Part shown: positions 14,201 through 25,582 of the stretch, piece by piece
Numbering within the stretch: position 1 is the first letter of the stretch
Layout: the number at the start of each line of letters is the position of its first letter
Virus record (IMG/VR): IMGVR_UViG_3300042569_000831
Coordinates: 2,008 to 66,007 of that record
DNA: 64,000 nt
DNA from: a virus
Lineage: Duplodnaviria; Caudoviricetes
Strand: one strand, 5' to 3'
Made by a program: the position numbers and the translations under genes
Notes under the pieces: generated by a model
What the model was told of the DNA's origin: nothing
Database searches by the model: none
The model's input: the letters and a program-made list of their open reading frames with translations, nothing else

Positions 14201-17176
14201 AAAGCAATAGAAGGCCTTTTAGGTAAGCCTAAGAAAGTTCAGCAAAGAAAGTCTGCTGTTGAAAAAACAAAAGAATTTAAGTTAGCTGCGTTTGTAATTA
14301 GAAAGAAATCAGAAGGCGCCTCTGTATTAGAATTAGCTACGGGTATAGCTTCTGTTATGCCGGGCATGTCGCCTGTTGAAATCAACAACTTGATTAACGA
14401 TCCTCAGCAGTACATAAGAGACAAGTTTAGCTACCTAAGCTCTCTTCTTCAAGAAAACTTAATAGCTAGAGCCGGAGGTCAAAACATTTACGCAAACATA
14501 CCTACTAAAAAAAGTGGAGCATTTTCTGCACTATCAGTAGACATATCTAGCATTGAAAACTACTTGTCTTCTAAAAAGAAAGGAAGAATTGATAAAGCGG
14601 TAAAATTCTTAGGCGATGTAAAAACTCAATGGTTTAGTGCTGCTAAAGGAGCTCCTAATTGGGTGCTTGCTTTGAGGGATATTTCTTCCGGAACTAGAAA
14701 CTTAGAAATAGATGTAGCTGTTAATACTACTAAGAAATTAAAGAAGACGGCTAATAGTATTAAATTTAATGATTGGGATGCGTTTACTAAGGCAATCAAA
14801 TCACTATCAGTTAACGCTACTCCTCAGCAGAACAGCTTGCAGGTAGTTCCGCCTGAAATACTAGCATTGCCTCAGGAAATACAGCCGTTTGTGTACGAGA
14901 TGAGAGATCAGATAGATGGACTTACCAAGGACCTTGTTGCGTCAGGGTACGTTACGCCCGATCAGGCCGTTGCGCTTGAATCAAATATTGGTCAGTACGT
15001 AAACAGAGCGTATAGATTGTTTAATGAAAAAGGATATAAGCCATCTAAGGAAGACATAGCTAATGCAATGAAATATTATTCCGATATTTATATTGACGAG
15101 TTAGCAAATAAGAATGCGGGAGTATTAACCTACGATCAGGTAAAGCAGAAAGCTATAGAGATGGCCGACATGGAAGTAAAGGATATTTTAAACAAAAAAG
15201 TAACTCCTTACTTTAAGTCAGGCGATTCTAGGAATGTTGATATACTTAAAAAGAAGGAAGATATTCCGGAGCCAATTAGAAAGTTAATGGGTGAGTACAC
15301 CGATCCGGGAACTGTATTTGTGATGACTGTTGCTAAGCAAGCTGCTTTAAGGTCTGCTAGTCAATTATTAACCGGCCTTAGAGATAGAGGCATGGGGTCT
15401 GTATTCTTTGAGGAGAATGACCCTGAAAGGCCCGATACTCATAGCGAACGAATAGTAGCAGAAGGTACTGAAACTAAGAATCCATTAGGAGGACTTTACA
15501 CGACTCCTGAGATGGCCGCTCAGTTACAGGGTATAGCTAAAACTACAAACCAAGTTTTAGATGTATGGATGAAATTAGTTGGTACTGTTAGATGGGGAAA
15601 GACTGTTGGATCCGTGGTTACTCAGGTTAAAAACTTTGAAAGTAACGTTGGATTTGCGGTAATGAATGGATTAATATTTACCGGTAAGTCGGGGCAGGGA
15701 TTAAAAGGAGCTGCTAGTTATTATGGCGGAAGAATAAGTGGAAGAGAGTTGGATGAATTAACAGCTAAGGTGGTTAGCTTAGGACTTGTTGGCCAAGGCG
15801 TTAACGCAATGGAGCTTAAAAAAATGCTCGGTTCGGGGGACGTACATGACATAGCTGTAGATTTAGCAGTAAATGGAAGATCTAATTACGCTAAAGCAAG
15901 AAACTTTGTATCAGCGCCAATAAGAGCAGCTAATAAGTTTTATCAATTAAGTGATGACTTTTGGAAAGTTTACGCTTACATGAACGAAAGGCACTTAATA
16001 GCTAAGGCGATGTTCGGAAAATCATACGACAAACTAACAGAAGATCAGCAAGTTGATGTGGACATAGAATCGTCCGAAAGAGTTAAGAGCACATGGCCAA
16101 CCTACGACCGTGTATGGGAGGGTGCTAAATACTTGTCAGAAAGAGTTCCACTAATAGGTAACTTTATTTCCTTCCAAGCTGAATCAGTGAGAGTGTTATC
16201 AAATACTGTTAAAATAGCCTTAAAGGATATTAAATCAGGCGACCCGGGCTTTCAAGCGTTAGGGTACAGAAGGCTCTTTGGAATAGCTTCTTACCTATCA
16301 ATAAGAGCAGGATTAACTTACGCTGCCGCTACCTCAGCAGGTATGGCTGTTGCAGGATTGTTAGGAATTATTACAGGGGATGATGAAGAAAAGGAAAAGC
16401 TAAAGGGGATTAAGGACGCCTTACCTCAGTTCATGAAGACCGGGGACTTGTTAGTAATCAAAGGCGATAAGCCGGGAGTATTCACTGTTTACAATATGTC
16501 TTCCATAGACCCTTACAACGTAATGTTTAATACAATGAATGCACTGACAGAGGGCAGGGAAGGAATGGATGCAGGTCCGGCTGCTGCGGTTACTGAGTTC
16601 TTTAATGGATTCATGGAGCCCGAAATGACTTACGAGACTGTATCAAGCTTATTAAGTAATAGAAGCTTAAAAACAGGCGATAAGATTTACTTAGATGCAG
16701 ACAATCCGGGTGACAAGATTCTTAAAGGAGCCAAGTACGTATGGGATAATTTAGAGCCATCGTCAGTTTCATTGGTGAATAGATTAATGGAGAAGGAAAA
16801 TAAGGGAGCAGAAGTTTCCGCTGTATTCGGAGCAAGACCTTACGATGTAGACTTGAACAGGTCGTTTAGAATATTATTATCCACTACTACTCAGGATTTA
16901 GAAACTATAAATAAGCAGTACGGAGCGATAAAGAAAAGCGAAACAGCTACAGCCGAAGAGAAGAAAGCGGCAGAGAAGGAGGCAGAAGAAAAGATTGCCT
17001 ATTACTCAGAAAGAATAGGCAATACTTATAAAAGATTCTTATTATTAGGTGCTAGCAAGGAAGAGCTAGACAATATAGTTAAAGAGAAGAGAGCTGTTAA
17101 ATCAACCGGATGGAGTAAGCAATTAAAGAAATCCATCATATCAGGCAAGATTAACAAGGACGACTTTTTAAAGTAG
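8207..17176 (+). CDS. giant polyvalent cargo protein (two HExxH metallopeptidase-like and ADP-ribosyltransferase-like modules)
   Basis: 2989 aa; HEGAH and HEIGH motifs, 'FYHYSGK' and 'VTVYSS...FVSPSK...EYAG' ART-like segments, hydrophobic helices in the C-terminal region. Confidence 0.7.
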   Translation: MPDKIKDFFKAEIAPTGLFKSEDEFRTYISDPKNASSFYESEVKPVGLFKDAEEFNSFLGLKKNDGLVSPTQNQQEVLPSNLAPTQSSVQNPRIEPSQEEDLSLLSVDELSKRYNKSKETINAYKEQVDKFKQEGEKGQVRLSGVANLYNYENNNLKNIADAYNQKIQQKAPKTPEPAPQAPTLLAKVREYQKIANAPVTKDYELNSMGDLDEVDNPASLKSKENAKVEYDKLIKEYATTTGISEDDLKQTLNDFPKISEDQKLVDYTKQRLENPAAYKRQKAASSWSNGLNDALVDYNQKAIAENKKPPIGNPVRFANQKREDLKVILKGANPYSQFINFTENLRKEISYLPNEVVNGIMKNVAIEGQGILEGAPDKDQYISSDPKSKNLNKYQVSWLNSIKISDPDLYKNRTRLLSVPMSKLEEQSSAKNEFSSLSPTSAIGASKAASAARNQRLASERVQLEAEEGGISMAKEDKTEKLDDLIRKSKTTGITQQEKEVADQLIVDLNQLDKDSKALNEKYPLATKDRDDQLLFSATGGELNRAERFAAKTVKGFDNALGFISDIISTPFMSKEQRVIQDLDELGGKRRFETKTARKQDDIVVGNYTINATPEFLKYIEEVDNDKSLTFEQKQQKKRDKYREDPYLITIKRNDNAGDLLFTSETVLNAVEDFGSQILPQLGLSAITGGGAAISKLRSLSTLFGTTFASGYKDNYLSAVEEGDAAPSTTAFRNTSIDALYELIGDDLAMVKKVFGKASGSIGKLVNSIDEAEWNKILSKKTGAFRAVKNVAKSFGKDVLLEGAKEATGEAAAAGTTSYLDNKEAYEPMKTAFVNTFVGSVATMGLGTVFNYKNITRAEKYAMYAAGANSSAYLADIDESLKNGTITEDEANKRRQVIQSMSNIVNEMPKVDGMSDNEVVDFAFNKYIQEQAGKAEKVIPDNAKVKELVQNLNNENNNIINAATESTQQAGSTESNIGQPTGTLQGQQEVGEGQQGEATQQGANVSDSNIVSEGELTPEQKKERIKSKFDFVSENDFVPEAFTKEEDAQYRDSLAPSRFKTEKELTDFLENNEYAMLTGQNPDVVSLSKGANAQLNDKAKQWLADRGLTAEPIFGRYDGSERSFLVPNMTKEQALEFSNDFLQQSVAHSEGLVYKDGTIRKRVEGYSLEPRFDADGNNYSTLKIGDKKVDFSINYDWVSPVSKMEAPKPLPAKNQKSTEIATELSRELTGPSDMIESVSQSLKATGINTVQLSGEEFAARAAKDGAQADSMGYFDDQAKEFVLNKDKADKATVIHEGAHPVMNIIYNTNRPLYDKVVSGMKQAAAKNAGVQSAIEFGGQYEMQEGETKEQAQARMDNEALVETLAKIEDGEIDLDELPKSFKQSLIDMVNSVAKFFGFDQVLDDTDVAAFKKLVGQVYDALTTGEDISSIVGVENVTKFENKIGEGVQERSSFVNTDKLNLSTDKRGNVKIELKKVQPTSELMSEYNNARNEAFKISDRAEEQYDKGNDKEGDALMIEYKKARKDAERLIKGTTASTSSSIELQDVLPKEFIDKYPSLSDIKIKSSDVSFGNRGNYNKETNTINVITKGENFEHTLSHEIGHLLWDKILTDNQKKLFSDNNPVTEHGKKVLDNKETNYQESYGGKNIHNEEDFAELFADNNGSLDDAIKAKKNQSATSKKVQERKTELPEKQARQMTEDGKGNYVFYHYSGKNINTIDPNKFGSNLATGRDEKPGVGISMYYTKKDTSEPGVPSNFGYVVRVPKDKVYSFNDDPLNLLPAAEKLFKKQYPNQAFDPNKQIGFLTKVANSKGYKMTVANWNIKGSFALRAQTTEALKPEKYTRIKPGTLNQTEVLSPELDKLKPNSKKRVQQRVDTLSDVERKQKQLEIINKENPAPNDYNTWIRKVEDIKTAEEAFKSSEKEGAMYPDFTEKDMKDALSSGEVTVYSSQPIKEGVFVSPSKINAQEYAGGKTGKLYSEKVKLEDVAWIDEGEGQFASTKAIEGLLGKPKKVQQRKSAVEKTKEFKLAAFVIRKKSEGASVLELATGIASVMPGMSPVEINNLINDPQQYIRDKFSYLSSLLQENLIARAGGQNIYANIPTKKSGAFSALSVDISSIENYLSSKKKGRIDKAVKFLGDVKTQWFSAAKGAPNWVLALRDISSGTRNLEIDVAVNTTKKLKKTANSIKFNDWDAFTKAIKSLSVNATPQQNSLQVVPPEILALPQEIQPFVYEMRDQIDGLTKDLVASGYVTPDQAVALESNIGQYVNRAYRLFNEKGYKPSKEDIANAMKYYSDIYIDELANKNAGVLTYDQVKQKAIEMADMEVKDILNKKVTPYFKSGDSRNVDILKKKEDIPEPIRKLMGEYTDPGTVFVMTVAKQAALRSASQLLTGLRDRGMGSVFFEENDPERPDTHSERIVAEGTETKNPLGGLYTTPEMAAQLQGIAKTTNQVLDVWMKLVGTVRWGKTVGSVVTQVKNFESNVGFAVMNGLIFTGKSGQGLKGAASYYGGRISGRELDELTAKVVSLGLVGQGVNAMELKKMLGSGDVHDIAVDLAVNGRSNYAKARNFVSAPIRAANKFYQLSDDFWKVYAYMNERHLIAKAMFGKSYDKLTEDQQVDVDIESSERVKSTWPTYDRVWEGAKYLSERVPLIGNFISFQAESVRVLSNTVKIALKDIKSGDPGFQALGYRRLFGIASYLSIRAGLTYAAATSAGMAVAGLLGIITGDDEEKEKLKGIKDALPQFMKTGDLLVIKGDKPGVFTVYNMSSIDPYNVMFNTMNALTEGREGMDAGPAAAVTEFFNGFMEPEMTYETVSSLLSNRSLKTGDKIYLDADNPGDKILKGAKYVWDNLEPSSVSLVNRLMEKENKGAEVSAVFGARPYDVDLNRSFRILLSTTTQDLETINKQYGAIKKSETATAEEKKAAEKEAEEKIAYYSERIGNTYKRFLLLGASKEELDNIVKEKRAVKSTGWSKQLKKSIISGKINKDDFLK
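11088..11255 (+). CDS. overprinted small basic phage protein (MPLQKAH...MLAIAISSAKGN)
   Basis: 55-aa ORF in the +1 frame of the giant gene, with an A-rich leader; resembles the widespread 'MPLKK..IS.NI.E..GK..QA.AIAL' phage family. Confidence 0.65.
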   Translation: MPLQKAHNKQGLQKAISANLRELYKDNKKLEKGNKGKPRSKAQMLAIAISSAKGN

Positions 17177-17488
17177 ACTCTTAGCGTAACGCTCTATCTC
17201 TAGTCTACCCTCTACGGTAAGGTTGCTCATTATCCGGGCAACCTCATCGTAGATTAATGTATCATCAAACTCTTTGTCCCTTACATCGGTTAGCGATCTC
17301 GGCACCCTTAAGTCAAGGGCGGTTTTGATATAGTCTATTTTCTTCCCTAATGGCCTGATAACATCGTTCTTTGCTCCAACGTGGAAGTCTCGGTCTGCTA
17401 TTAGACTATCACAATACATCTTAGCATTCTTGATGCTTTTGTACATTAAGCACATTGTTTCGCTCTGCGTGTTCGTTAGTTTTATCAT
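17168..17488 (-). CDS. hypothetical protein
   Basis: ORF converging on, and overlapping, the stop of the giant gene. Confidence 0.6.
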   Translation of the reverse strand: MIKLTNTQSETMCLMYKSIKNAKMYCDSLIADRDFHVGAKNDVIRPLGKKIDYIKTALDLRVPRSLTDVRDKEFDDTLIYDEVARIMSNLTVEGRLEIERYAKSLL

Positions 17489-17606
17489 TAATTTCGTTTT
17501 CTAATTTTACTAATATTTGCCCTATTACTATCCCTATCTTAAGGGTATCACCTTCTTCAATAGCCCTAGATAGCGATACGTGTATGTTCTTAAGTAGGTC
17601 AATCAT
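17421..17606 (-). CDS. hypothetical protein
   Basis: Coupled ORF in the - strand operon. Confidence 0.5.
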   Translation of the reverse strand: MIDLLKNIHVSLSRAIEEGDTLKIGIVIGQILVKLENEINDKTNEHAERNNVLNVQKHQEC

Positions 17607-17830
17607 AACTTGTCGTTTAATAATTTTAATACATCATTTTTTTCAATCCACTCCCTAATCAATAGGGAGTCCTCGTGTACGTACGAGTCTTCATCCCAAG
17701 TAAATTGCACTATAGCGTTGCGCTTGATTTTTTCTGTACCAAACTCGTGAGTAAAACTCTCGTCCACCTCTTCTACCTCACCGTAGAATGTGACGTACAG
17801 GTCTTCTGTTATTTCAACTTCAATTTCCAT
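17603..17830 (-). CDS. acidic hypothetical protein
   Basis: ATG ORF, coupled to the next gene. Confidence 0.55.
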   Translation of the reverse strand: MEIEVEITEDLYVTFYGEVEEVDESFTHEFGTEKIKRNAIVQFTWDEDSYVHEDSLLIREWIEKNDVLKLLNDKL

Positions 17831-17987
17831 ATTGCTATTGTTTGAATATAATTATTATTATTTGAAGCCTTTAATTGTACTGTAAGATATTTTATTGGTA
17901 AACAGTGTGTAGTTCTTGTATTATTATTAATAAGGTTCTTCCATACCTCAATAAAATGTGTTGGATTATTCATGGGTAAATGTTTGG

Positions 17988-18239
17988 TTATAATATTTCA
18001 ATTTCAGATTTTAAAAACTCTTGTTTAGATAATTCCATTCCCGAATTAAATTTAGTATTAAAAGAAATTTCCGCTAACTTTTCAGATGGTATTAGTTGTT
18101 GTTTAATTAAATCATAAACATTTAATATTGCTTTACTATCTGAAGATTTTAAAATACCATCTAATCCTTTAACAACATTTATTTGAGTTTCTATCCATTC
18201 ATTACTAATAAGTGAATAGTCTTGTAGTTTAATTTTCAT
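17988..18239 (-). CDS. hypothetical protein
   Basis: ATG ORF in an AT-rich accessory region. Confidence 0.55.
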   Translation of the reverse strand: MKIKLQDYSLISNEWIETQINVVKGLDGILKSSDSKAILNVYDLIKQQLIPSEKLAEISFNTKFNSGMELSKQEFLKSEIEIL

Positions 18240-18242
18240 ATA

Positions 18243-19142
18243 TTATTTCTTTTTAAATTTATTACACCATTCAATAAATAATTCTTCATTAGTTCTTTCT
18301 TTACCTGAAATTTGATTAACCTCTAAGTAGACCCATATTGCAAAATCAATCATATCTTTTTTAGTAAACATTCTTCCTTCCATCCATTTAGCGCCTTCAA
18401 TAAACTCATTTCTTAATTCAGAGTCTTTTTCAGACATACTTCTTGGATATTTTTCAAAGGCAAGTTCTTCTATTGTTTCTTTAGGTATAAACTGTCTATA
18501 ACAAGTTATTTCATTACAACCCTTCATTTGTTCTCTTAGTGTTTTATCGCAAAAATTACAAATCTCTTGTTCAGATTTTTCGATTAGGACTTTAACAAAA
18601 CACCCACAATCATGTCCCGGACTATCCAAAAAACAACCGTTTCCATTATTGCCATTACATTCGCCGATGTATTTTTGTTTAGATTCTTCTTGTGGGATGA
18701 TGATTTTATAAGGTTTGATAAATCTCATTTTTGGATACGGTACAGTATCATCCTGTTCTTTTTCCAATGTTGCAACCTCACAACTACTGTTCTTTACAAA
18801 CCACTCTGCAAATGTATTATCAATAGCTTGTACTCCGCTAACTATTAAATCTTCGTCTGTTGTCAGGATGACTTTTTTACAATATTCTGCACCAATGGCC
18901 ATGCCACCACTATTAGTGACATAGTATATAGTTTTTGAATTTTTTGTATGGCATCTATGTAAATAACCCCCTGTAGTGATGAACCATTCTCCTTCTTTAA
19001 TTTCTAAATCAGCAGTAATATAGATGTGTTGGTTAATTGTATGACCACCTGAATTTTGCAAGATGCTATCTAAGTGTAATTTACCGTTATTAGAGTATAA
19101 CCTACTTGGTTTATCTGTAGGGATTAAGTGAATATTTTTCAT
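18243..19142 (-). CDS. mosaic hypothetical protein with Cys-rich inserts
   Basis: 299-aa ORF 'MKNIHLIPTDKPSRL...KKVILTTD'. Confidence 0.65.
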   Translation of the reverse strand: MKNIHLIPTDKPSRLYSNNGKLHLDSILQNSGGHTINQHIYITADLEIKEGEWFITTGGYLHRCHTKNSKTIYYVTNSGGMAIGAEYCKKVILTTDEDLIVSGVQAIDNTFAEWFVKNSSCEVATLEKEQDDTVPYPKMRFIKPYKIIIPQEESKQKYIGECNGNNGNGCFLDSPGHDCGCFVKVLIEKSEQEICNFCDKTLREQMKGCNEITCYRQFIPKETIEELAFEKYPRSMSEKDSELRNEFIEGAKWMEGRMFTKKDMIDFAIWVYLEVNQISGKERTNEELFIEWCNKFKKK

Positions 19143-19277
19143 CTGTGAATTTTTTTGAATTTATAATGAGTGTATATACTAGATCCGCAGGCCTGAGTCT
19201 CGGATGGTGTTCTACAGGACTGTAAATATACAAGTAGAATAATTGCAATCAAAATCTTTTTCATGTTTTTTTTGTTT

Positions 19278-19325
19278 CGCAGTATTGTAATACCCCGCAA
19301 TGCGGGGATATGTGAGTTATAAGAA
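19278..19325 (+). other. attI-like site 1
   Basis: CGCAGTATTGTAATACCCCGCAATGCGGGGATATGTGA-GTTATAAG; palindromic, lacks an attC body; homologous copy at 32611. Confidence 0.5.
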
Positions 19326-19335
19326 ATAGCTACGT

Positions 19336-19542
19336 TTAGTAGTTTTCAAGATAATCTCTAACTTCTTCCCAATAATCTTTTCCTAAAAACATACCAAAAG
19401 GATTAATTGATTTTATAATCTCATCAACTGCTATTAATGCACATAATACTGCATCCTCATCAGTTATTTTTATATTTCTTTTGTTAAATAAATCATCCTT
19501 TATTTTATTTACAATTTGCTTAGCTTTTTCTTTTGCATCCAT
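19336..19542 (-). CDS. cassette 1 hypothetical protein
   Basis: 'AKEKAK...CALIAVDEII...YWEEV' small phage protein lying within cassette ends. Confidence 0.65.
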   Translation of the reverse strand: MDAKEKAKQIVNKIKDDLFNKRNIKITDEDAVLCALIAVDEIIKSINPFGMFLGKDYWEEVRDYLENY

Positions 19543-19570
19543 AATTACTATTTGTGTTTATATCCGCTAC

Positions 19571-19699
19571 TTCTTATAACAGCAATTTGTATAAAAGGCT
19601 TGTTTAGTGTATGTCGGATAGTTTTGTTGATATTCTTTTTTATTTGTTGTGTTTTAGCTTAATTCACGCCACTTATACAAGTTGCAAAACGTTATAAGC
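19571..19699 (+). repeat. attC-like site 1
   Basis: TTATAAC-AGCAATTTGTATAA...TTATACAAGTTGC-AAAAC-GTTATAA. Confidence 0.8.
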
Positions 19700-19704
19700 A
19701 AGTG

Positions 19705-20523
19705 CTACATTTCGTTTCCAAATAAAGTTCCTACCCATAAGTCTTTTTCTTTTCTTTTTTCTTCCACTTCTTTTTTTGATTTCCCACTGTTAGTAGTTAA
19801 TAACTCCATAAACATATCATAATTTTCATTATGATTATTTTCGCCATATTTTATTTTAACCACTAAATCGTGCTTAATTTGGTCTATCTTAGGGTAAGGT
19901 AGGGTTTCAACAATCAAATCCGAAATACATTTTTTGTCAAAAAAATAGAAATATCTATACTGTCCTCCAAAAACTTTGTATAATGGTGTTCCATAAATAC
20001 CTTCTAATACACGTCTTTCTATTGTTTTATGTTTATGCCACAAAGAAACACTGTGCAATCTTTCACCATCTTTTGTGTACCAAACTCCGCCATCTTTTCT
20101 AAATCCAGTATAAATAAAATTACTTGCTTGGTATATAGTGCCGTTTTTGTTCATCATACCGTCTGCAAATGAAATAACCCATTTAAGTTTAGGGTTTAAT
20201 TTTTTTACCATTTTTAATGACTTTGCGATAACATAGCTTTCAGAATTAAACCCTAATTTATCATCAAGCCACAACCTGTTTAGTTCTAAAAATTCATCTT
20301 GTTTAGTGTTTTTTACCCACTGTGCTGTTTTTTTAGGCATTATCCCAAACCCATATTGAGCAACTCCTAATAAATCACTGCTGTAAAAAATGCCTATATG
20401 GTACTTAACACCTTTTACGGATGTACCGCTATAATGATTTTTTTCAATAATTGAGTTAGCTACTTTTGGTTCTATTAGCTCTAAATGTATGTTCTTAAAA
20501 TCTATATTTTGTTTCTTTTGCAT
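19705..20523 (-). CDS. Mom-like (GNAT-fold) DNA adenine-modification protein
   Basis: 'HYSG', 'LELNRLW', 'ISFAD...GTIYQASNFIYTG' Mom-family motifs. Confidence 0.75.
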   Translation of the reverse strand: MQKKQNIDFKNIHLELIEPKVANSIIEKNHYSGTSVKGVKYHIGIFYSSDLLGVAQYGFGIMPKKTAQWVKNTKQDEFLELNRLWLDDKLGFNSESYVIAKSLKMVKKLNPKLKWVISFADGMMNKNGTIYQASNFIYTGFRKDGGVWYTKDGERLHSVSLWHKHKTIERRVLEGIYGTPLYKVFGGQYRYFYFFDKKCISDLIVETLPYPKIDQIKHDLVVKIKYGENNHNENYDMFMELLTTNSGKSKKEVEEKRKEKDLWVGTLFGNEM

Positions 20524-20617
20524 ATTTCAATTTTTTGTTTTATTTTCCCACCGCACAAAAAAGAAAAGAAAAAGGTTTTGTCTTTCAAATCAAGTTCTAC
20601 ACTATAATACCGCACCA

Positions 20618-20753
20618 GCTTATAACAGCGTGTATATGCAAGTGGCGGTTCTGTGGTTTATCCAACATTCGTTATTCTATCAAACTATCTGCGTAATTGA
20701 AAGGTAAGTGCTTCTAATCGCCACCTGACATATACACGCAAAACGTTAGGTGC
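20618..20753 (+). repeat. attC-like site 2
   Basis: TAAC-AGCGTGTATATGCAAGTGGCG...CGCCACCTGACATATACACGC-AAAAC-GTTA, with extra bases on the right arm. Confidence 0.85.
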
Positions 20754-20757
20754 AATG

Positions 20758-20973
20758 CTAATTTCTACTCCTAACAAAACCTGCTATTATTAGAAATCCT
20801 ATTACCATATTAGTTGTTGGTTTAAGGATTCTACTATTCTCACTATAACATATCAAATTCCCAATTATTAATCCTATTAATAACAAGATTGGGAAGATAT
20901 GTTTCCGCACTGCACCTAACACCGGTTTTGTGCCATTGGCGGTTTCGTTCTTCGATTTAACTTTTGTACTCAT
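20758..20973 (-). CDS. cassette 3 small two-TM membrane protein
   Basis: Two hydrophobic helices; start codon lies inside the attC-3 loop. Confidence 0.55.
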   Translation of the reverse strand: MSTKVKSKNETANGTKPVLGAVRKHIFPILLLIGLIIGNLICYSENSRILKPTTNMVIGFLIIAGFVRSRN

Positions 20974-21048
20974 ATCAAGTTTTGTTTTTCAATTTAAAAT
21001 TTGTGGTTTAAGTCGCCAACGGACACAAAGCCCCGAAACGTTATGCTC
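20912..21048 (+). repeat. attC-like site 3
   Basis: GCACCTAAC-ACCGGTTTTGTGCCATTGGCG...CGCCAACGGACACAAAGCCCCGAAAC-GTTA. Confidence 0.8.
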
Positions 21049-21104
21049 CATTGCTACATTCGTGCTTCGATTGAAGTTTTGTGCTAACATACCGTATTTA
21101 TTTT

Positions 21105-21983
21105 TTATTTTCCTCGCTCTTTTGGATAAGGATAAATTTTATTTCTTTCTTCATATATTTTACGAAGTTGTTTTGTTTCTTTTTTATCTTTCCCTAAAAC
21201 ATAAGCGTATTTGTGTTTTGAAGGCATAGATATTTTTTCGCATACCGTTTGTTTGTATTTTGAATAATCTCTTAGTTGCTTCTCAATTTCTTTCGGCATT
21301 TTATCCCAATTCATGCCAGTAGCGTGTGACCAATCTTTTTGCCACTCAATATTTAATTCCTTTGCAAATTTTCGATAGGCTGTTTTTTGTCTAAAATATC
21401 TATCACTTACCACCTTTCCTGTATATGGGTTAATAAATCGGGTTGTAGTCCCAGCAGTTTGCCCCATATAGTAGAAATTACAAGCCTGATAGATAGTTCC
21501 AAGTTCCTTTGCTGTTGGGTCTGAATATGCAGTAAATAACCTCCATTGAGTATTATCAACCATATGTTTTATACACCACATTAAAAATGAACTTGCTAAA
21601 TTTTTTGGCGACCAAGATATACAAGCACCTCTACTAATCAATCTCTCCAATTCTTTGGTGTTATCTCCAAGTGTTTTTGAAAAAGCATTTGGCATATTAA
21701 ATAAAATTACACCAGCAATAATGCCTTTATGATAACAAGCAAACCAATGTGTTGTATATTGAGATAAATTCCCCAACCATTCGTGTCTTTCAATAAATTG
21801 TTTTAGCCTTTGTTGTTCCTTTTTATCTGTAACATTAACAAACAAAAAATCAGGAACTCTTAACGTATCAACATATTCTTTTGTAAAACCACATTCCGTT
21901 AAATCTCCTTCAAGGTTTTTCACTCTAATATCATACTGCCAACATTGGTCTTTATCGTATGTGTTCAATCTTTCTTGTATCAT
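21105..21983 (-). CDS. second Mom-like (GNAT-fold) DNA-modification protein
   Basis: 'RLISRGAC...AYSDP...GTIYQACNFYYMG' motifs. Confidence 0.7.
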   Translation of the reverse strand: MIQERLNTYDKDQCWQYDIRVKNLEGDLTECGFTKEYVDTLRVPDFLFVNVTDKKEQQRLKQFIERHEWLGNLSQYTTHWFACYHKGIIAGVILFNMPNAFSKTLGDNTKELERLISRGACISWSPKNLASSFLMWCIKHMVDNTQWRLFTAYSDPTAKELGTIYQACNFYYMGQTAGTTTRFINPYTGKVVSDRYFRQKTAYRKFAKELNIEWQKDWSHATGMNWDKMPKEIEKQLRDYSKYKQTVCEKISMPSKHKYAYVLGKDKKETKQLRKIYEERNKIYPYPKERGK

Positions 21984-22077
21984 TTTAATTTTTTAAATTA
22001 ATTTTTGCCAACGCTCATAAAAAATAAATACTACTTATGTGCTTCGATTTAAATTCCTCGTTAATAAACCGCAACGA

Positions 22078-22176
22078 GAGCATAACACGTGCTATAAGCA
22101 AGTTTGCCAATAATATTTGTGCTAATTTGAAACATTCTACAAGGCAAACCTGCTCATAGCACCATACGTTAGTTGC
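22078..22176 (+). repeat. attC-like site 4
   Basis: GAGCATAAC-ACGTGCTATAAGCAAGTTTGCC...GGCAAACCTGCTCATAGCACCATAC-GTTA. Confidence 0.85.
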
Positions 22177-22411
22177 AATTTTTCTTACACCACATTATCT
22201 TGCTACCTCTCCGCAAATGAACTAATCGTAATTCATAACCTTTATTCATCATTTGTTGCATTTCTTCTAATTCTTTAAGTTCTACATCATTGAAAGAGCG
22301 TTCATTTGCTCCATCTTTAATCTTAATGTAATTCTTAGCAAAATCATAAAAACTGCAACTAACATCGTGTATAGCACATTGCTTTTCGTGTTTCAAATTA
22401 TCTTTATTCAT
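22169..22411 (-). CDS. cassette 5 hypothetical protein
   Basis: Starts inside attC-5; its TAA stop overlaps the GTTA of attC-4. Confidence 0.55.
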   Translation of the reverse strand: MNKDNLKHEKQCAIHDVSCSFYDFAKNYIKIKDGANERSFNDVELKELEEMQQMMNKGYELRLVHLRRGSKIMWCKKNCN

Positions 22412-22484
22412 ATTATTAAGTTTTGTGTTTGCATTTGTTTTTTTTAATTAAGTTCCTACTGATAAGCCGCCAAACGTTAATACC
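22355..22484 (+). repeat. degenerate/chimeric attC-like site 5
   Basis: GCAACTAAC left end and AAAC-GTTA right end, but the arms pair poorly; GTTA coincides with the thyX stop codon. Confidence 0.55.
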
Positions 22485-23121
22485 CGAACGCCTTTAACGT
22501 CCACTTAAAGGGATTTCCCTCTATGTTTTTCACAGCTTCTAGCATTTGACTTGCCACCTCCCTAGTCTCTTGCTGCGCATCCGGTTTTAACCTAAGGTTC
22601 CATAAATGAATAAATGCTAGCAAACTTCCCGTCCAAATAAATGTAGTATTAAGATTTAAAGGAAGAATTGTCCTTGCTTGTTCTTTAGATACGCCTAATT
22701 TTAACAACTCTTCGTATGCTTTTTTGCACTGATCAATTACACATCTTTCAATATAAGCGGCTGACAATTGTGATTGTATTAGTCCATCACTCCCCTGCTT
22801 GCTATCTTTAGATTGCTTTCTCCATTCCTTAATAGTAGTGTAACTATCACTAAAGTCTACATACCTACCACTTATACTATTGGCGGATAGTCCAATTTGA
22901 TGTTTAAAAAGCTGTCTTTCTACATAAATAGGACAAGTTATTCTAAACTGTAACTGAGGGTGTCTAAAAGGCGCTGTGTGTTTATGTTCAACTAAATATT
23001 CTATAAGTCTTTCATCCTTTTCATCTAGCATGTCTTTTGACTTGCCGAATGACACACGAGCCGAATTTACCGCCATTAAATCATCTCCAAAATGCGAAAG
23101 CAATTCTACTTTATTTTCCAT
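22477..23121 (-). CDS. thyX: flavin-dependent thymidylate synthase
   Basis: 'HTAPF', 'RQLFKHQIGLSANSISGRY', 'EQARTILP', 'LRL...AQQE' ThyX motifs. Confidence 0.95.
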   Translation of the reverse strand: MENKVELLSHFGDDLMAVNSARVSFGKSKDMLDEKDERLIEYLVEHKHTAPFRHPQLQFRITCPIYVERQLFKHQIGLSANSISGRYVDFSDSYTTIKEWRKQSKDSKQGSDGLIQSQLSAAYIERCVIDQCKKAYEELLKLGVSKEQARTILPLNLNTTFIWTGSLLAFIHLWNLRLKPDAQQETREVASQMLEAVKNIEGNPFKWTLKAFGY

Positions 23122-23338
23122 TCTCTAATAATTGTATTTTTCTGTTAAGATAAAATGATGCCTTCTTTAAATCTTCAATCTCCGTTTCTACGCTTTTCTT
23201 CCCGGCTCTAGCTATGTACTTCGCTACATTAAATAAATAGGCGTCCATGTGCAAGCCCCATGCTTCGCACACATTAATTACTTCATACGTTCCTTCACCC
23301 CCATAATGGGATGGGTGATCTACTAAATTATTTGGCAT
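23111..23338 (-). CDS. DUF3310-family protein
   Basis: 'VDHPSHY...NVAKYIARAGKK...EDLKKA.FYL'. Confidence 0.85.
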   Translation of the reverse strand: MPNNLVDHPSHYGGEGTYEVINVCEAWGLHMDAYLFNVAKYIARAGKKSVETEIEDLKKASFYLNRKIQLLENGK

Positions 23339-23389
23339 TATTTATTGTTTTAGTTATTGTTTTTTTCTCTAAATTCAATCCTAGAATCG

Positions 23390-23584
23390 TTAATATGCAA
23401 TAATATTATTAACAATTCGGTTAGCTTCCGAATAGCTTAGTTTAATATTACTGTCCTTAGCTCGTTGGATAGTAATATTATTACCATCGTCAACAGCTTT
23501 CATTACTATTTTGCCCCTGTACTCTTTATTCCAATGTTTAGAATATTTTACACAATTATTATCTATGTCGTACTCATTAGACAT
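23390..23584 (-). CDS. hypothetical protein
   Basis: ORF in operon. Confidence 0.45.
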   Translation of the reverse strand: MSNEYDIDNNCVKYSKHWNKEYRGKIVMKAVDDGNNITIQRAKDSNIKLSYSEANRIVNNIIAY

Positions 23585-23613
23585 TAAATTAGGCTATGCT
23601 TCTATGTGAACCC

Positions 23614-23862
23614 TTACCATATTTTTAGTATTTTATCTCCTTTAGTTAATATTCTTATTTCAAAGTGGTTGTCATAAAAGGATACAATATCGCTAACTAA
23701 ATTGTTTATATTACTAAAATTAATCATTAAGTACTGATTGATTGAGTGTATAAACCCATTGAAATCTAAGACACGCTTTGGATTAGTATCCAAGTACACA
23801 TCGTACATGAATTGATAAGTCATATTTGACCTATTAGCTAGATAGTATTCCTTTGTTATCAT
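23614..23862 (-). CDS. hypothetical protein
   Basis: ORF in operon. Confidence 0.55.
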   Translation of the reverse strand: MITKEYYLANRSNMTYQFMYDVYLDTNPKRVLDFNGFIHSINQYLMINFSNINNLVSDIVSFYDNHFEIRILTKGDKILKIW

Positions 23863-23863
23863 T

Positions 23864-24397
23864 TTAAAAGTTTTTAAACATCATTGATTCGACCGGTAGG
23901 CTTGATTGATGATTGTACTTTGCTGATTTTTTTGTATCATAAGGATTAATTACATTTCCCTTTATAGCATGATATACTAATTGGCCTATTGGCATGTTTG
24001 CATATATTCTAACAGGCTTTACGGCGGTAATTTCTAGCGTCCAATACCCTTTAAAATTTACGTCACCTAGCCCTGCTGTTATATGGATAGAAATACCTAA
24101 CCTGCCGGTGCTTGACTTGCCTTCTAATATTGGAACATGGCGGTAAGTTTCTGTGTACTCGATAGTAGAACCTAGATAAAGCACGTTTGGCTGTAATACA
24201 AATCCTTCTTTCGGTATGTTAAAACAATTAATCTTATTGTGCTTCTTAGCGTCTAATACTTCTGAGTCGTAAACAGCTAGTGTCTTGCCCAAGTGAACAT
24301 CGTAACTATTGCTACCTAAATGTTCTATGTTAAATGGGAATATCGCAATATTACCATCTTCCATTTGATTTAATATTTCACTGTCTGATAGTATCAT
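23864..24397 (-). CDS. dcd: dCTP deaminase
   Basis: 'MILSD.EI', 'SYDVHL', 'EGKSSTGRLG', 'GYWTLEI', 'PIGQL' trimeric dUTPase-fold Dcd motifs. Confidence 0.9.
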   Translation of the reverse strand: MILSDSEILNQMEDGNIAIFPFNIEHLGSNSYDVHLGKTLAVYDSEVLDAKKHNKINCFNIPKEGFVLQPNVLYLGSTIEYTETYRHVPILEGKSSTGRLGISIHITAGLGDVNFKGYWTLEITAVKPVRIYANMPIGQLVYHAIKGNVINPYDTKKSAKYNHQSSLPVESMMFKNF

Positions 24398-24407
24398 AAA
24401 TTTAGTT

Positions 24408-24436
24408 TAAAAGCCCCCGAACTCTCAGGGGCTTTA
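24408..24436 (-). terminator. intrinsic terminator-like hairpin
   Basis: AAAGCCCC...GGGGCTTT stem with flanking A/T runs. Confidence 0.6.
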
Positions 24437-24441
24437 TTGAT

Positions 24442-24681
24442 TTAAAATGGTAATCCGTCATTGCTCTGCTTGTCTTCTGCTTTTTTTTCAGTAGGAACCC
24501 AAGTATTTAACTCTAGGTACGGTCTACCATCCTTAGAACTTTTAAGTACAAAGTTTTTCCAACCATCGAACTTAACGCCAATCTTTTCCCAATCCTGAGG
24601 ACCAAAAGAGATGGCTGTTTCAACTTGTCCAAACTTGTTTTCCTTTTGGGATACTTTCCCAACATAGATTTTTTCGCTCAT
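24442..24681 (-). CDS. small SSB-like protein
   Basis: Acidic C-terminal tail ending DGLPF. Confidence 0.55.
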   Translation of the reverse strand: MSEKIYVGKVSQKENKFGQVETAISFGPQDWEKIGVKFDGWKNFVLKSSKDGRPYLELNTWVPTEKKAEDKQSNDGLPF

Positions 24682-24829
24682 GTTTATTAAAATTTAAAAG
24701 TTAATTCAAACGCAAAATTTAAGAACCCTACCGCTAACGCAACTTCCTTTCGATAACTATCATAAATCAGTGCAACTGCCGGAAATAATAAATAGATAAA
24801 CTCTTCCTTTTCTACATTAAAAGTTGTTT

Positions 24830-25165
24830 TCATATAATTTTATTTAATTTAAGCATGTCAATTAATTCTTTGAAACTATCTAAGCTCATTGCTACGATGG
24901 TTCCTTGTCTTGTTTTTTTGTGGAACACTAGATTGTAATTAGAGTCTTTAGGCATACTGTCTAGTACTTTATGAATACTACCAAGATTCTCTACCGCCTT
25001 TAATTGGCAGTTAAATGGATTGGTATTGGTTAAGTCTACCTTAAGATCGTCTAGCATCTTTGATTCGTACCGAGAGGTTTTACAATTCTCGAACCCCCGA
25101 TCTCGCCACCATTTAGCTATCTCCCTTTCGTATGTATGCCCTTTGGCTCTAGCGTTAATCTTCAT
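24830..25165 (-). CDS. Holliday junction resolvase (PD-(D/E)XK, Hjc-like)
   Basis: 'RAKGHTYERE...VDL...CQLK'. Confidence 0.75.
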   Translation of the reverse strand: MKINARAKGHTYEREIAKWWRDRGFENCKTSRYESKMLDDLKVDLTNTNPFNCQLKAVENLGSIHKVLDSMPKDSNYNLVFHKKTRQGTIVAMSLDSFKELIDMLKLNKII

Positions 25166-25358: not shown

Positions 25359-25582
25359 AAATTCTTTTTGCTGTTAAAAAATCTTCTATTGTTGACCATT
25401 CAACTTCGTTATGGAAAGTGCTAAGATAGAAAATATTTTTATTAATTGGGTCAACTAAATAAAATTTATTTTCATTTGGCACAACTTCTTCCGGCTCAGC
25501 TAGCCTTAACATATCAATCCCCTTTTCTAATATCACCCACTCCCTGATTTTACCTCCGTTATTAGCGCTCTTCCATGAATCT

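Follow-up and report, generated by a model that had tools for sequence, protein, structure and literature searches.

Two divergent Mom-family genes within a hairpin-bounded cassette array of a lake-water phage of flavobacteria

Why should a single phage carry two very different copies of a Mom-family gene, and how might they have come to lie 580 nt apart in an array of small genes punctuated by hairpins? The window (the whole 64,000-nucleotide stretch analysed, from IMG/VR record IMGVR_UViG_3300042569_000831) is a tailed-phage genome belonging to a lake-water phage of flavobacteria, and its early/replication block on the minus strand holds a variable low-GC stretch, with 29–32% GC at 18–24 kb compared with 38–40% in most other parts of the window. 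Following ThyX, five small cassettes occupy 19316–22483 on the minus strand, in the order 80-aa ORF, MomB, 71-aa ORF, MomA and 68-aa ORF, and the whole block is absent from the closest relatives (primase 67% identical). Read along the gene strand, each cassette consists of a TAAC|G foot, a hairpin (in four of the five), a GTTA box, a leader and a gene. The features are as follows.

19316..19323, minus strand: box at which the array ends, TTATAAC with a short GC hairpin after it instead of the G and arms
19336..19542, minus strand: 68-aa ORF of the final cassette; matches PHROG 21441 (unknown function) at E 7.6e-7
19573..19698, minus strand: E1, imperfect palindrome (126 nt) separating MomA from the 68-aa ORF; its crossover-type core G is 19691
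19705..20523, minus strand: MomA, 272-aa Mom-family GNAT, Pfam PF25680
20524..20600, minus strand: MomA leader, a conserved A/T-rich region of ~75 nt upstream of the gene
20619..20752, minus strand: E2, imperfect palindrome (134 nt) immediately 5' of the MomA leader; its core G is 20745
20758..20973, minus strand: 71-aa ORF between the Mom cassettes; basic N-terminus then hydrophobic stretches, membrane-like
20913..21047, minus strand: E3, imperfect palindrome (135 nt) on the 3' side of MomB; its core G is 21040
21105..21983, minus strand: MomB, 292-aa divergent Mom-family protein
21984..22044, minus strand: MomB leader, which travels with the MomB gene in other phages
22079..22175, minus strand: E4, imperfect palindrome (97 nt) on the 5' side of the MomB leader; its core G is 22168
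22169..22411, minus strand: 80-aa ORF, the first cassette following ThyX
22355..22483, minus strand: E5, degenerate element whose TAAC core overlaps the ThyX stop codon

Neither the 80-aa nor the 71-aa ORF has a Pfam or PHROG match, and the 68-aa ORF is not alignable to the gene that follows a 90%-identical hairpin in Flavobacterium phage filifjonk9-1. The terminal arrangement of the array recurs in Flavobacterium phages, where the equivalent terminal junctions read CTTATAAC|TACAAT.

Two divergent members of the Mom family

A first-pass annotation of this DNA had described two GNAT-fold ORFs sharing an (F/Y)xD...GTIYQAxNF motif and had likened them to Mom of phage Mu. Both ORFs are present, each with the motif (F-A-D ... 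GTIYQASNF in MomA, Y-S-D ... GTIYQACNF in MomB), and the likeness is borne out: both match PHROG 1384, 'Mom-like DNA modification protein', and both exceed the 27.1-bit cut-off of the Pfam Mom family PF25680, MomA at 196.2 bits (E 6.2e-58, profile positions 2–202 of 202) and MomB at 55.4 bits (E 8.6e-15). Aligned over residues 10–212, MomA and Mu Mom are 34.4% identical (tblastn E 7e-29), and MomA matches the Mu Mom structure 8bv8 in a PDB sequence search (E 8.3e-31); past the Mom domain it has a C-terminal extension of about 60 aa, and its stop codon lies within a conserved cassette tail motif. A plain PDB sequence search with MomB gives weak GNAT matches only and no match to Mom, and a Foldseek search of the PDB with its AF2 model (pLDDT 89.5) places 8bv8_A/B at the top (E 1.7e-8 and 8.4e-8; TMq 0.48, TMt 0.62–0.67), the next GNAT following at 3.4e-5. 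The best structural match of MomB is thus Mom itself, and not the non-DNA acetyltransferase that would have spoken against the annotation.

Mu Mom moves glycine from Gly-tRNA(Gly) onto adenine N6 in dsDNA, and rearrangement of the product then yields carbamoylmethyl-adenine, a modification that blocks restriction; R151 is essential and W48 is a dimer residue (PMC13219725, of which a part was available, and from which the residue list used here is taken). MomA keeps H58, Y59, R111, S124, D149 and Y159 of the Mu protein but not W48, R151 (replaced by M) or W181. MomB keeps R111, D149, Y159 and W181, has E for H58, W for Y59 and T for R151, lacks W48, and is ambiguous at S124, which falls in an alignment gap; compared with the Mu protein, it also carries two inserts, of about 8 and 29 residues. 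The reportedly essential R151 is therefore M in one protein and T in the other, an observation that counts against activity. Only 31 residues are alignable between MomA and MomB, and R111, D149, G156, Y159, Q160 and N163 are invariant in Mu Mom, MomA, MomB and a Vibrio phage homologue whose neighbouring genes encode a thymidylate synthase and a Dam methylase. There are 2282 relatives of MomB at E<=1e-5, the best 120 of which are 69–94% identical.

Judged from these sequences, MomA most likely has the function of Mu Mom, and would add glycine to adenine N6 in double-stranded DNA and so block restriction. MomB belongs to a marine subfamily that is large and tightly conserved and has a changed pocket, and it probably acts in another sequence context or with another donor; if the two proteins differ in this way, the pair would widen protection.

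The MomB gene and its leader of ~60 nt are also present in phages that have no hairpin elements. The homology block shared with sequences L007–L009 runs from 22044/22037 to 21095/21105 of the window at 84–87% nt identity, stopping about 40 nt before the E4 box and at most 10 nt past the MomB stop codon, short of the E3 core. The Mom genes are therefore also moron-like units, not strictly bounded by the elements.

Hairpin elements and the junctions they mark

The sub-motifs that had been noted near both ends of the Mom cassettes are indeed shared, and are pieces of larger repeated spacer elements, E1–E4. At the left end, GCTACATT(T)CGT (19704–19715 and 21053–21063) matches twice with 0.04 expected, and 0 of 100 shuffles reach two matches, for a pattern picked after being seen. 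At the right end, TTTT.CC..CGC complements a GCG..GG.AAAA box and ACCGCA a TGCGG box, the former box lying within the ~75-nt leader common to the Mom genes, the MomB homologues and a Polaribacter phage methylase; an alignment of this leader (MomA, MomB, three MomB homologues and the P12002L gp38 methylase) has a mean column identity of 75%. A motif of about 20 nt is conserved in the cassette tails.

There are several features of the elements. First, the palindromes E1–E4 are 97–135 nt long and attC-like in form, with arms of ~20 nt, an unpaired spacer of 5 nt against 1 nt, a closing GTTA box, and loops of 50–80 nt without a T run. Second, they fold to differing degrees as DNA: E4 most strongly (−18.4 kcal/mol, z −3.89, equalled by none of 200 shuffles, arm score 30), then E2 (z −2.70, arm score 32), E1 (−12.3 kcal/mol, z −1.95) and E3 (z −1.40), with E5, whose left arm and GTTA box lie inside the 80-aa ORF, forming no stable hairpin (z +0.57). 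Third, an independent HMM trained on other phages only scores three of the five left boxes above every shuffle: E1 yields 27.9 and 23.3 bits, E3 13.3 and 12.7 bits (shuffle maxima 8.1 and 10.1), and the E5 left box 13.7 bits (E 0.005). The left boxes of E2 (6.2 bits) and E4, the two elements ahead of the Mom genes, are at noise by this sequence model, so that the support for these two elements is their hairpins. Fourth, a 10-nt core pattern, chosen post hoc, occurs seven times in the window with 1.37 expected, five of these on the minus strand within 19685–22479, the E5 core being one of the matches. Finally, what is conserved is the structure rather than the sequence. The arms of E1–E4 vary from copy to copy and remain complementary; in one subtype a complementary partner arm and GTTA box accompany 83 of 88 instances and 1 of 88 after shuffling; and among 28 distinct arm types, with cognate arms selected by a score threshold, only 0.4% of 756 non-cognate pairs reach that threshold. 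Different genes read through the right arm in two frames. In E3 the right arm is translated, and the loop holds the ATG of the 71-aa ORF.

Elements of this family fill the genomes of Flavobacterium and Polaribacter phages. E1 is 90.2% identical to a spacer of filifjonk9-1 and 80–82% identical to 44 further Flavobacterium phage records, with genes on both sides that are unrelated to those of the window. Polaribacter phage P12002L has the same architecture directly upstream of its Mom-like gp53 and beside methylase genes, its spacers having the core of the window's elements, their 5-nt/1-nt spacer asymmetry and a related leader.

Comparison of near-identical phages (mumin6-1/6-3, lillamy9-2/9-6, sniff9-1/9-2 and filifjonk9-1) indicates what happens at these sites. 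Of 22 block junctions 10 were inspected, and all 10, each a gain, loss or replacement of genes, lie inside elements. At seven the TAAC core lies within or next to the crossover interval, and the sequence shared there is only 6–16 nt long; one lies at the GTTA box and two at the outer edges of the left half. Three junctions share only 6–8 nt, with unlike flanks on both sides. TAACGTT is the longest identical stretch at the crossovers, a location that short-homology recombination would give likewise. These junctions are all from other phages, and no indel adding or removing a Mom cassette was seen. In other metagenomes, a 2799-nt contig of run X4 with one difference from the window ends exactly at 21040, a run X4 contig ends at 19319, and a run X5 contig continues in unlike sequence beyond 20748; these are weak hints, as contigs break at repeats anyway. 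The description of the Mom genes as cassettes thus stands insofar as they are flanked by a hairpin family that marks gene-swap junctions, with the reservation that MomB and its leader also occur in element-free phages.

The elements are predominantly viral and their cargo is biased. A pattern of ~21.5 specified bases, estimated to occur by chance less than once, is found in 102 stretches of viral contigs and in 17 stretches among 185,579 prokaryote species (one genome each), all 17 on MAG contigs: about six times as many in the viral collection as in the prokaryote one, which is far larger. Among the ORFs directly downstream of one subtype, up to 31 of 81 encode DNA methylases or Mom (23 PF01555, 3 PF02086, 1 PF05869 and 4 Mom), compared with 5 of 81 control ORFs from the same contigs (3 PF01555, 2 PF00145, counted among the 25 most frequent of 41 families). 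This enrichment agrees with the earlier proposal of a swappable anti-restriction kit, which the cargo annotations suggest.

Alternative explanations

The best explanation, which we hold with somewhat more confidence than doubt, is that the Mom pair belongs to an exchangeable set of cassettes, with structure- or site-directed exchange at the hairpin foot. Cassettes would be gained, lost or replaced through recombination, mostly at the foot (TAAC|G) and in fewer cases at the GTTA box, without need of an integrase in cis; exchange would probably be directed by structure or site on folded single strands, as with attC sites, and carried out by a putative enzyme, and the outcome would be an exchangeable set of DNA-modification genes carried by the phage. 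Alternatively, the spacers may be primarily expression signals (a promoter or leader with a stem in the start region) that are shuffled by ordinary short-homology recombination without a specific enzyme, and we regard this as a real, if lesser, possibility. The downstream start codon lies in the loop of E3 and of many Flavobacterium phage copies, the leader is common to Mom and methylase genes of different phages, whole spacers are 80–90% conserved between differing genes, half-elements without a partner arm occur, and the crossovers fall in the longest stretch of identity. The arrays have no recombinase linked to them, which counts against directed exchange, and three complete phage genomes that bear the elements lack PF00589; a YqaJ-type recombination exonuclease is matched among the control ORFs of element-bearing contigs, an exonuclease is annotated in the Flavobacterium phages, and PeSLs are documented as mediating such shuffling (PMC2839356, available in part). 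However, the 6–8 nt shared at three junctions are short for homology-driven exchange, and hairpins whose arms are otherwise unrelated still retain TAAC and GTTA at their foot. Moreover, 19100–22600 holds 12 sigma-70-type promoters with 15.7 expected, in a scan that does not cover Bacteroidota promoters, and one terminator-like site with 1.6 expected, and long loops lacking a T run are unlike terminators.

That these are canonical integron cassettes, a strict CALIN captured from or exchanged with bacterial integrons by a host-supplied integron integrase, seems to us improbable, notwithstanding the AAC...GTT boxes, the paired arms with unpaired spacer bases, the attC-like lengths, and a junction geometry in the relatives that corresponds to cleavage within AA|C on the gene strand. 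The plus-strand reading of the E2 box, GTTAGGT, fits the GTTRRRY consensus quoted in PMC9892861 (consulted in part), and P12002L_attC2 is reported there to recombine with attI1 under IntI1 in E. coli. Against this, the integron integrase model TIGR02249 has no match above cut-off in 301 sampled genomes of the family to which a Flavobacterium MAG belongs, or in the three MAGs holding the element; that result also favours the expression-signal reading. The window's own tyrosine recombinase, 11 kb away, is generic, scoring 35.9 bits on an Xer/integron-integrase model (cut-off 220) with no match to TIGR02249. The genes are on the would-be recombinogenic 'bottom' strand and the element therefore lies upstream of its gene, and several ORFs start inside an element and would be split by a G|TT cut at the far box. 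The viral bias also argues against it, as does the conserved cassette-tail motif. We know of no such tail motif in attC. The canonical integron was rejected on the upstream position of the element and the integrase searches in the phages and the 301 genomes, and the resemblance to integrons suggested in the first-pass annotation holds for form only.

It is also conceivable, though we think it doubtful, that MomA, MomB or both do not modify DNA, MomB in particular perhaps being a Mom-fold GNAT that acylates a protein, small molecule or RNA, in which case the pair would not be an anti-restriction kit. The changes in MomB at H58, Y59 and R151, the ambiguity at S124, its weak GNAT matches in the PDB sequence search and its moderate TM-scores to 8bv8 are compatible with this, and the authors of the Mom structure state that Mom substrates are not predictable from it (PMC13219725, as far as available). 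Yet MomB is above the Pfam Mom threshold, 8bv8 leads its fold matches with an E-value over a thousandfold lower than the next, the six invariant residues are retained, the Vibrio phage homologue lies beside thymidylate synthase and Dam genes, the element family carries DNA methylases at up to 27 of 81 positions, and two randomly chosen metagenomic Mom homologues are described as active in the same source. Least credible, and very hard to sustain, is a reading of the spacers as chance or low-complexity similarity in AT-rich DNA and of the cassettes as ordinary small phage genes. The region is indeed only about 30% GC, some metagenome contig joints rest on sides of 20–30 nt and poly-T/CT runs, and by sequence only, E2 and E4 do not reach significance; this reading is contradicted by the megablast match of E1 to unrelated phages (E 1e-55), the clustering of the core pattern, the hairpin z-scores, the partner arms and the 102 viral stretches.

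Comparison with known systems

Relative to Mu, both proteins pass the Mom family model and both lack R151 and W48, MomB having its insertions and E/W for H58/Y59 and MomA its 60-aa C-terminal tail. In Mu a Com-like translational regulator overlaps mom, whereas none overlaps either Mom gene of the window, both of which have instead a common A/T-rich leader; and Mu has one mom at the genome end, whereas the window has two divergent copies in a cassette array. The cassettes also resemble the CALINs carrying methylases in virulent phages that were already described in 2023 (PMC9892861; these statements are limited to the part available), where IntI1 recombined attI1 with five of six attC sites taken from three virulent phages, P12002L_attC2 among them and P12002L_attC1 not. 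These, with two methylase cassettes in P12002L, share AAC/GTT hairpin sites between small genes of Flavobacteriia phages, a cargo of DNA-modification genes and a phage without an integrase. The available main text has no occurrence of Mom or of Flavobacterium, and relative to it the additions here are Mom cargo, natural core junctions in isolates, a strong viral-contig bias, a quantified enrichment of modification genes, the upstream position, and the lack of an integron integrase in the host family genomes sampled.

The PeSLs of T4-type phages, which are sigma-70 early promoters with terminator stem-loops termed 'mobile regulatory cassettes' and for which mini-circles were shown (PMC2839356, same portion), are likewise short conserved intergenic stem-loop motifs flanking non-essential genes in variable regions, to which insertions, deletions and replacements between close relatives map. 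The window hairpins differ in their long loops, often enclosing a start codon, and in their conserved TAAC/GTTA feet; the window array has no sigma-70 excess, and crossovers in the element family can rest on 6–8 nt. The Baltic Flavobacterium phages (Muminvirus, Lillamyvirus; PMC7077304, seen in part) have the same element family, with an E1 spacer 80–90% identical, and arrays of methylase and small genes on one strand near the genome end, and the presence or absence of one methylase was linked there to plating efficiency on another host. These phages are otherwise unrelated to the window phage, the spacer alone matching, and the stretches examined have no Mom annotation. The available text of that report contains none of 'intergenic', 'palindrom' or 'integrase', and the elements thus appear undescribed in it. 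Sedentary chromosomal integrons (bioRxiv 10.1101/2024.07.02.601686, available in part) also bank conflict genes in small, promoter-poor cassettes with hairpin sites, and do so on a bacterial chromosome, with IntI and attI and with anti-phage defence genes. The window array, by contrast, is in a phage, has inverted gene orientation and no IntI, and would carry counter-defence genes; it may be seen, as was first proposed from the sequence, as the mirror image of the defence-carrying integron cassettes.

Divergent Mom-family proteins in one genome

The window makes up most of a 66-kb viral record. Its structural genes lie on the plus strand; the minus strand has a block for replication and nucleotide metabolism that encodes a primase-helicase, a dCTP deaminase, DUF3310 and ThyX. 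Both open reading frames that the first-pass annotation had put forward as Mom-like are present as it described them:

19705–20523, minus strand: MomA, 272 aa, PF25680
21105–21983, minus strand: MomB, 292 aa, PF25680

Both proteins pass the threshold of the Pfam Mom profile PF25680 (cut-off 27.1), MomA with 196.2 bits (E 6.2e-58, profile positions 2–202 of 202) and MomB with 55.4 bits (E 8.6e-15, positions 9–195 of 202). Both also match PHROG 1384, and NCBIfam gives sub-threshold matches only for either protein. MomA is 34.4% identical to the Mom protein of phage Mu across residues 10–212 (tblastn E 7e-29) and finds the solved Mu Mom chain 8bv8 by sequence (E 8.3e-31). A plain sequence search of the PDB returns no Mom match for MomB. 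Its AlphaFold2 model, built from 22 sequences, has a pLDDT of 89.5, and a Foldseek search of the PDB with this model places 8bv8 chains A and B at the top (E 1.7e-8 and 8.4e-8), with ordinary GNATs beginning at 3.4e-5. The assignment of both proteins as Mom-like is therefore upheld, and because the 8bv8 chains outrank the ordinary GNAT acetyltransferases, the best fold match of MomB is to Mu Mom and not to a non-DNA acetyltransferase.

The two proteins are only distantly related to each other, and BLASTP aligns them over just 31 residues around the GTIYQAxNF motif; they are old paralogues or independent acquisitions, not the products of a recent duplication. MomB has 2282 relatives at E≤1e-5, the best 120 of which are 69–94% identical and all carry PF25680; its subfamily is both large and tightly conserved. 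Positions 21115–21959 within the MomB gene share 68% nucleotide identity with a gene (2997–3869) of Vibrio phage 501E54-1 (149 kb), where the homologue adjoins thymidylate synthase and Dam methylase genes, a likeness that points to transfer between phages whose hosts belong to different bacterial phyla. A peptide-pattern search of IMG/VR for relatives of MomA gave a single weak locus, L006, with 28% identity.

Mu Mom uses Gly-tRNA(Gly) as donor of the glycine that it attaches to the N6 position of adenine in double-stranded DNA, after which there is a rearrangement on the base, and its activity requires R111, S124, D149 and R151, the loss of which is abolishing or strongly reducing; H58, Y59, Y159, W48 and W181 are also important (PMC13219725). 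In our alignments R111, D149 and Y159 are invariant across Mu Mom, MomA, MomB and the Vibrio phage homologue. MomA also keeps S124, H58 and Y59, with R151 replaced by M, W181 by R, and W48 gone, and it aligns with Mu Mom through the helix-turn-helix-like insertion (Mu residues ~175–209), which is needed for Mom activity, up to a C-terminal PYPK. MomB keeps W181 but has E at H58, W at Y59 and T at R151; at S124, MAFFT aligns M, and hhalign gives a three-residue gap beside a nearly invariant S131. The alignment and the model place helices in the region of MomB that matches the insertion, and H183 and PYPK are common to MomB and Mu Mom. From the residues kept or changed, therefore, MomA is a probable Mu-like adenine modifier, and MomB is rated as a Mom-fold enzyme whose donor or target may differ from that of Mu Mom. 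The only tRNAs encoded in the window are tRNA-Met and tRNA-Thr; the tRNA scan found no tRNA-Gly there that could be linked to Mom chemistry.

Hairpin elements of the array and their relatives in other phages

All four long spacers around the Mom genes are elements (E1–E4) whose single strands fold into long imperfect hairpins. With a degenerate fifth element (E5) and a lone terminal box they form a five-cassette array (all in plus-strand coordinates):

19316–19323: lone terminal box, which closes the array
19573–19698: E1, 126 nt, DNA-fold z -1.95
20619–20752: E2, 134 nt, DNA-fold z -2.70
20913–21047: E3, 135 nt, DNA-fold z -1.40
22079–22175: E4, 97 nt, DNA-fold z -3.89
~22355–22483: E5, degenerate, overlapping the ThyX stop codon, without a hairpin, z +0.57

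Read on the gene strand, E1–E4 begin with a conserved tail that follows the stop codon of the upstream gene, and then have a TAAC box, five unpaired bases and an arm of about 20 nt. A loop of 40–80 nt leads into the complementary arm, and a single unpaired base separates this arm from a GTTA box and a short GC-rich motif; the 5′ arm, as read from the sequences, is one base longer in three of the four. The short sub-motifs reported at the cassette ends at first pass are real, and are pieces of the element tail, of the motif after the box and of a ~75-nt leader common to MomA, MomB, the MomB homologues on other contigs and a methylase gene of Polaribacter phage P12002L. Half-site HMMs trained on Flavobacterium phages alone score E1, E3 and E5 higher than any shuffle but miss E2 and E4, whose standing as elements rests on their predicted structure. 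Rfam has nothing at E≤1 in 19000–22700. Neither sigma-70-like promoters nor terminator-like sites are in excess in the array, by a scan not modelled on Bacteroidota promoters; the best promoter-like site (22011–21982) was set aside because its transcription start would fall past the MomB ATG. The loops of E2 and E4 (20630–20700 and 22060–22140, minus strand) contain short ORFs of about 22–24 codons that run through the right arm and GTTA and then stop, in frames that, as read from the sequences, are those of real genes in related phages. These ORFs could be relics of earlier cassette genes ousted by the Mom units.

When 17000–26000 of the window was compared by megablast with 50,697 phage records, the E1 spacer was the only match, with 90% identity to Flavobacterium phage filifjonk9-1 and 80–82% in 44 more Flavobacterium phage records. 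These spacers have unrelated genes on either side and belong to arrays with many DNA methylases, and the genes that flank the 90%-identical hairpin are non-homologous between the window phage and filifjonk9-1. P12002L has the same architecture immediately upstream of an annotated Mom-like gene and beside methylases: its Mom-like and methylase genes lie side by side at 37305–38015 and 38118–38816, with a hairpin element before each.

A search with a 22-base pattern of one element subtype gives 102 stretches in the viral collection and 17 among 185,579 prokaryote species (one genome each), all of the latter on MAG contigs and mostly from Bacteroidota. In 83 of the 88 instances with enough flank, a complementary partner arm and then GTTA follow, typically 89 nt on, as compared with 1 of 88 when shuffled. 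It is the pairing that is conserved rather than the arm sequence, since non-cognate pairs among 28 distinct arm types reach the cognate threshold in only 0.4% of 756 comparisons. E3 and many of its relatives have the start of the downstream ORF inside the hairpin loop, and the right arm is read in two different frames by different genes; the constraint on the element therefore acts on the nucleic acid.

The Mom genes are, to judge from their relatives, not purely element-bounded. MomB and about 60 nt of its leader are also found in three other viral contigs (L007–L009) with 84–87% nucleotide identity, and the homology ends about 40 nt before it would reach the E4 box. In L007 the ~220 nt upstream of the homologue contain neither a TAAC core nor a hairpin; L008 and L009 have a bare TAAC/G core about 85 nt before its ATG, without a hairpin, and L008 has an element copy about 520 nt upstream. 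About 2 kb upstream of its 87%-identical MomB homologue, L009 also has the leader and first ~300 nt of this gene a second time, as a partial, inverted copy (1615–1923, reverse orientation).

Cargo and probable gene exchange

The first-pass annotation had described the two Mom genes as part of a swappable anti-restriction kit, and this appears to be borne out as a property of the element family by the enrichment of modification genes downstream of it relative to controls. As downstream ORF we took the longest one that begins no more than 260 nt from the core and has 50 codons or more; 81 of 95 distinct pattern instances had one. These 81 ORFs include 23 with PF01555, 3 with PF02086, 1 with PF05869 and 4 Mom, the methylase families being assumed to lie on separate proteins; if they overlap, there are at least 23 methylases and 4 Mom among the 81. 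An equal number of control ORFs, drawn at random more than 3 kb from the pattern on the same viral contigs, gave 3 PF01555 and 2 PF00145, and Mom is absent among the 25 families listed for them.

Evidence for exchange comes from near-identical phage isolates. Phages mumin6-1 and mumin6-3 differ by a 506-nt one-gene segment and are elsewhere >99.9% identical; at the junction there is a 7-nt overlap, TAACGTT, and the sequences on either side of it are dissimilar. We read 10 of the 22 block junctions from such isolates, and all ten are inside elements. In seven, the TAAC core is in or abuts the crossover interval, which is 6–16 nt long; one of the others is at the GTTA box, and the last two fall on the outer margins of the left half-element.

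For the window phage itself, the closest relatives (L013–L016, primase 67% identical) have the primase and three more genes in common with it, beyond which all that lies between dCTP deaminase and the Mom array is missing. They have no homologue of any gene tested in 17168–24397, including Mom, ThyX and dCTP deaminase, and gave no element matches and no junctions. The Mom-array region is thus seen, in these sequence comparisons, to be variable between the window phage and its relatives. The GC content of 18–24 kb is 29–34%, compared with 38–40% in most of the remaining window, and because of this drop and the lack of the tested genes in L013–L016 the whole low-GC block (18001–24000) looks acquired.

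Assembled metagenome contigs were also aligned to the window. A 2799-nt contig from lake-water run X4 has a single difference and breaks off exactly at the E3 core (21040); a second lake-water contig stops at the terminal box (19319), and a third continues on dissimilar sequence past the E2 core (20748). Assemblies break at repeats regardless, and these ends are only a hint of exchange in the window's lineage. Depth in X4 is zero over 19453–20537, which we do not take as evidence, nor do we so take the back-joints with short inserted letters in runs X3 and X9, or the X9 joints that skip from 21106 to 21983, from 19337 to 19538 and from 19766 to 20543, whose sides are at most 30 nt and in some cases poly-T or CT. 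In X9, a wastewater run, the four spacers (19236–19886, 20538–21188 and 22057–22273) reach a depth of 561–1925, summed over many organisms, as against 5–60 on most of the Mom bodies, a difference of tens to hundreds of times; spacer-like sequence is very abundant in this sample, presumably across many phages.

Several other features of the genome were seen. Beside the structural genes, one ORF of 2989 aa (8207–17176, plus strand) has a HEIGH zinc-protease-like motif, and a gene in the relative L015 matches the last ~1000 residues of the ORF with 52% identity; the product may be a giant protein that is ejected or belongs to the virion. Past the end of the array, the product of a small ORF (19139–19300, minus strand) starts, from an internal ATG, with MKKILIAIILLVYLQSC, which looks like a lipoprotein signal peptide, and it could be a lipoprotein of the superinfection-exclusion type. 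A tyrosine recombinase (33744–34949, minus strand; PF00589, E 1.7e-11) lies near genes for tRNA-Thr (36227–36297, minus) and tRNA-Met (30468–30541, minus), which suggests a temperate lifestyle; no link between it and the cassette array was found. Downstream of this integrase block, a gene-free stretch of ~590 nt holds an inverted repeat (32765–32962) with arms of ~22 nt placed 187 nt apart, a candidate attachment site or origin.

Explanations and likeness to known systems

The observation made at first pass is thus confirmed and its interpretation is supported in substance. We consider it somewhat probable that the general picture holds together with structure- or site-directed exchange by an unrecognised enzyme. 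A more far-reaching reading, which is unlikely though not remote, is that Bacteroidota phages have a cassette exchange of their own that does not depend on integron integrases. In that reading the hairpin of ~100–130 nt with its TAAC/G foot would be both a recombination site and a 5′ expression element of the following gene, the recombinase would be an unrecognised phage or host enzyme working on folded single strands, and the cassette system would preferentially bank counter-restriction enzymes, namely N6/N4 and Dam-type methylases and Mom; the MomB subfamily (>2000 relatives, with the H58, Y59 and R151 positions altered) would install a hypermodification unlike Mu's carbamoylmethyl-adenine. 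To read the exchange instead as short-homology recombination between regulatory linkers is doubtful, though by no means negligible. RNase III-type processing sites are known in T7; such processing is rejected as the main role of the hairpins, since a start codon enclosed by the arms would be severed from its ORF by the cut. IS200/IS605-like (HUH) elements move by a peel-and-paste mechanism, and a version of this with TAAC as target is only a remote option, since the cassettes show one hairpin, with neither a second end structure nor a transposase.

That the array is a true integron is very improbable, notwithstanding the resemblance in form. Sites of the attC type are 57–141 nt long, and E1–E4 are likewise imperfect palindromes, of 97–135 nt, with TAAC and GTTA boxes and unpaired spacers of 5 nt versus 1 nt, E5 being unlike attC in having no hairpin. 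With four full elements and one degenerate element in 3.2 kb, the array also fits the definition of a CALIN, at least two close sites without an integron integrase (PMC9892861). An integron cassette, however, has its ORF followed by attC, with exchange at G/TT of the far box, whereas here the crossover box and hairpin precede the gene; in integron terms the window genes are on the recombinogenic strand with the site upstream of the gene, the reverse of the usual cassette. The sole tyrosine recombinase of the record is generic and not of the integron type, three complete element-bearing phage genomes have none, and the integron-integrase model TIGR02249 is above cut-off in 0 of 301 sampled genomes of a Flavobacterium MAG's family and in 0 of 3 element-bearing MAGs. 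Because the recombinase is generic or absent, no integron integrase was found in the genomes searched and the crossover box is ahead of the hairpin, the array is not a canonical integron.

If the preferred account is correct, phages of abundant aquatic bacteria hold anti-restriction genes in an exchangeable array, a counter-defence mirror of bacterial defence cassettes, which would help to account for quick host-range shifts in nature. Muminvirus, Lillamyvirus and P12002L provide cultured phage-host pairs fit for direct tests of the exchange mechanism, and the element core is a simple search handle for counter-defence genes in viromes. MomB marks a branch of the Mom family that is large, conserved and as yet uncharacterised, and two divergent paralogues in one genome are a natural test of variation in donor or sequence specificity at a time when the charged-tRNA chemistry of Mu Mom is only just solved.

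Phage-borne attC clusters that have no integrase were described in 2023, among them one in P12002L that holds two methylase genes; 5 of the 6 phage attC sites tested under IntI1 recombined (PMC9892861). The main text of that report mentions neither Mom nor Flavobacterium, and gives the P12002L cargo as methylases only. Baltic Flavobacterium phages have variable methylases with an effect on host range, one methylase being tied to plating efficiency, in an account whose text has nothing on intergenic repeats (PMC7077304). Within the literature covered, which leaves out subscription journals and supplements, we found neither Mom genes in such cassettes nor junctions at a TAAC core. The closest functional analogue is the PeSL cassettes of T4-type phages, which are shuffled via conserved intergenic stem-loop motifs (PMC2839356). 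As in those, a conserved intergenic motif flanks variable genes, and the insertions and deletions of close relatives map to it, as seen here in the near-identical Flavobacterium phages, with only the contig ends at the cores for the window's own lineage. PeSLs also combine a strong sigma-70-like early promoter with a terminator stem-loop; in the array there is a conserved leader, and the scan, which is not modelled on Bacteroidota promoters, shows no excess of either kind of site. Such arrays being already known, what is new here is Mom cargo in attC-like phage arrays of inverted geometry in which no integron integrase was found.
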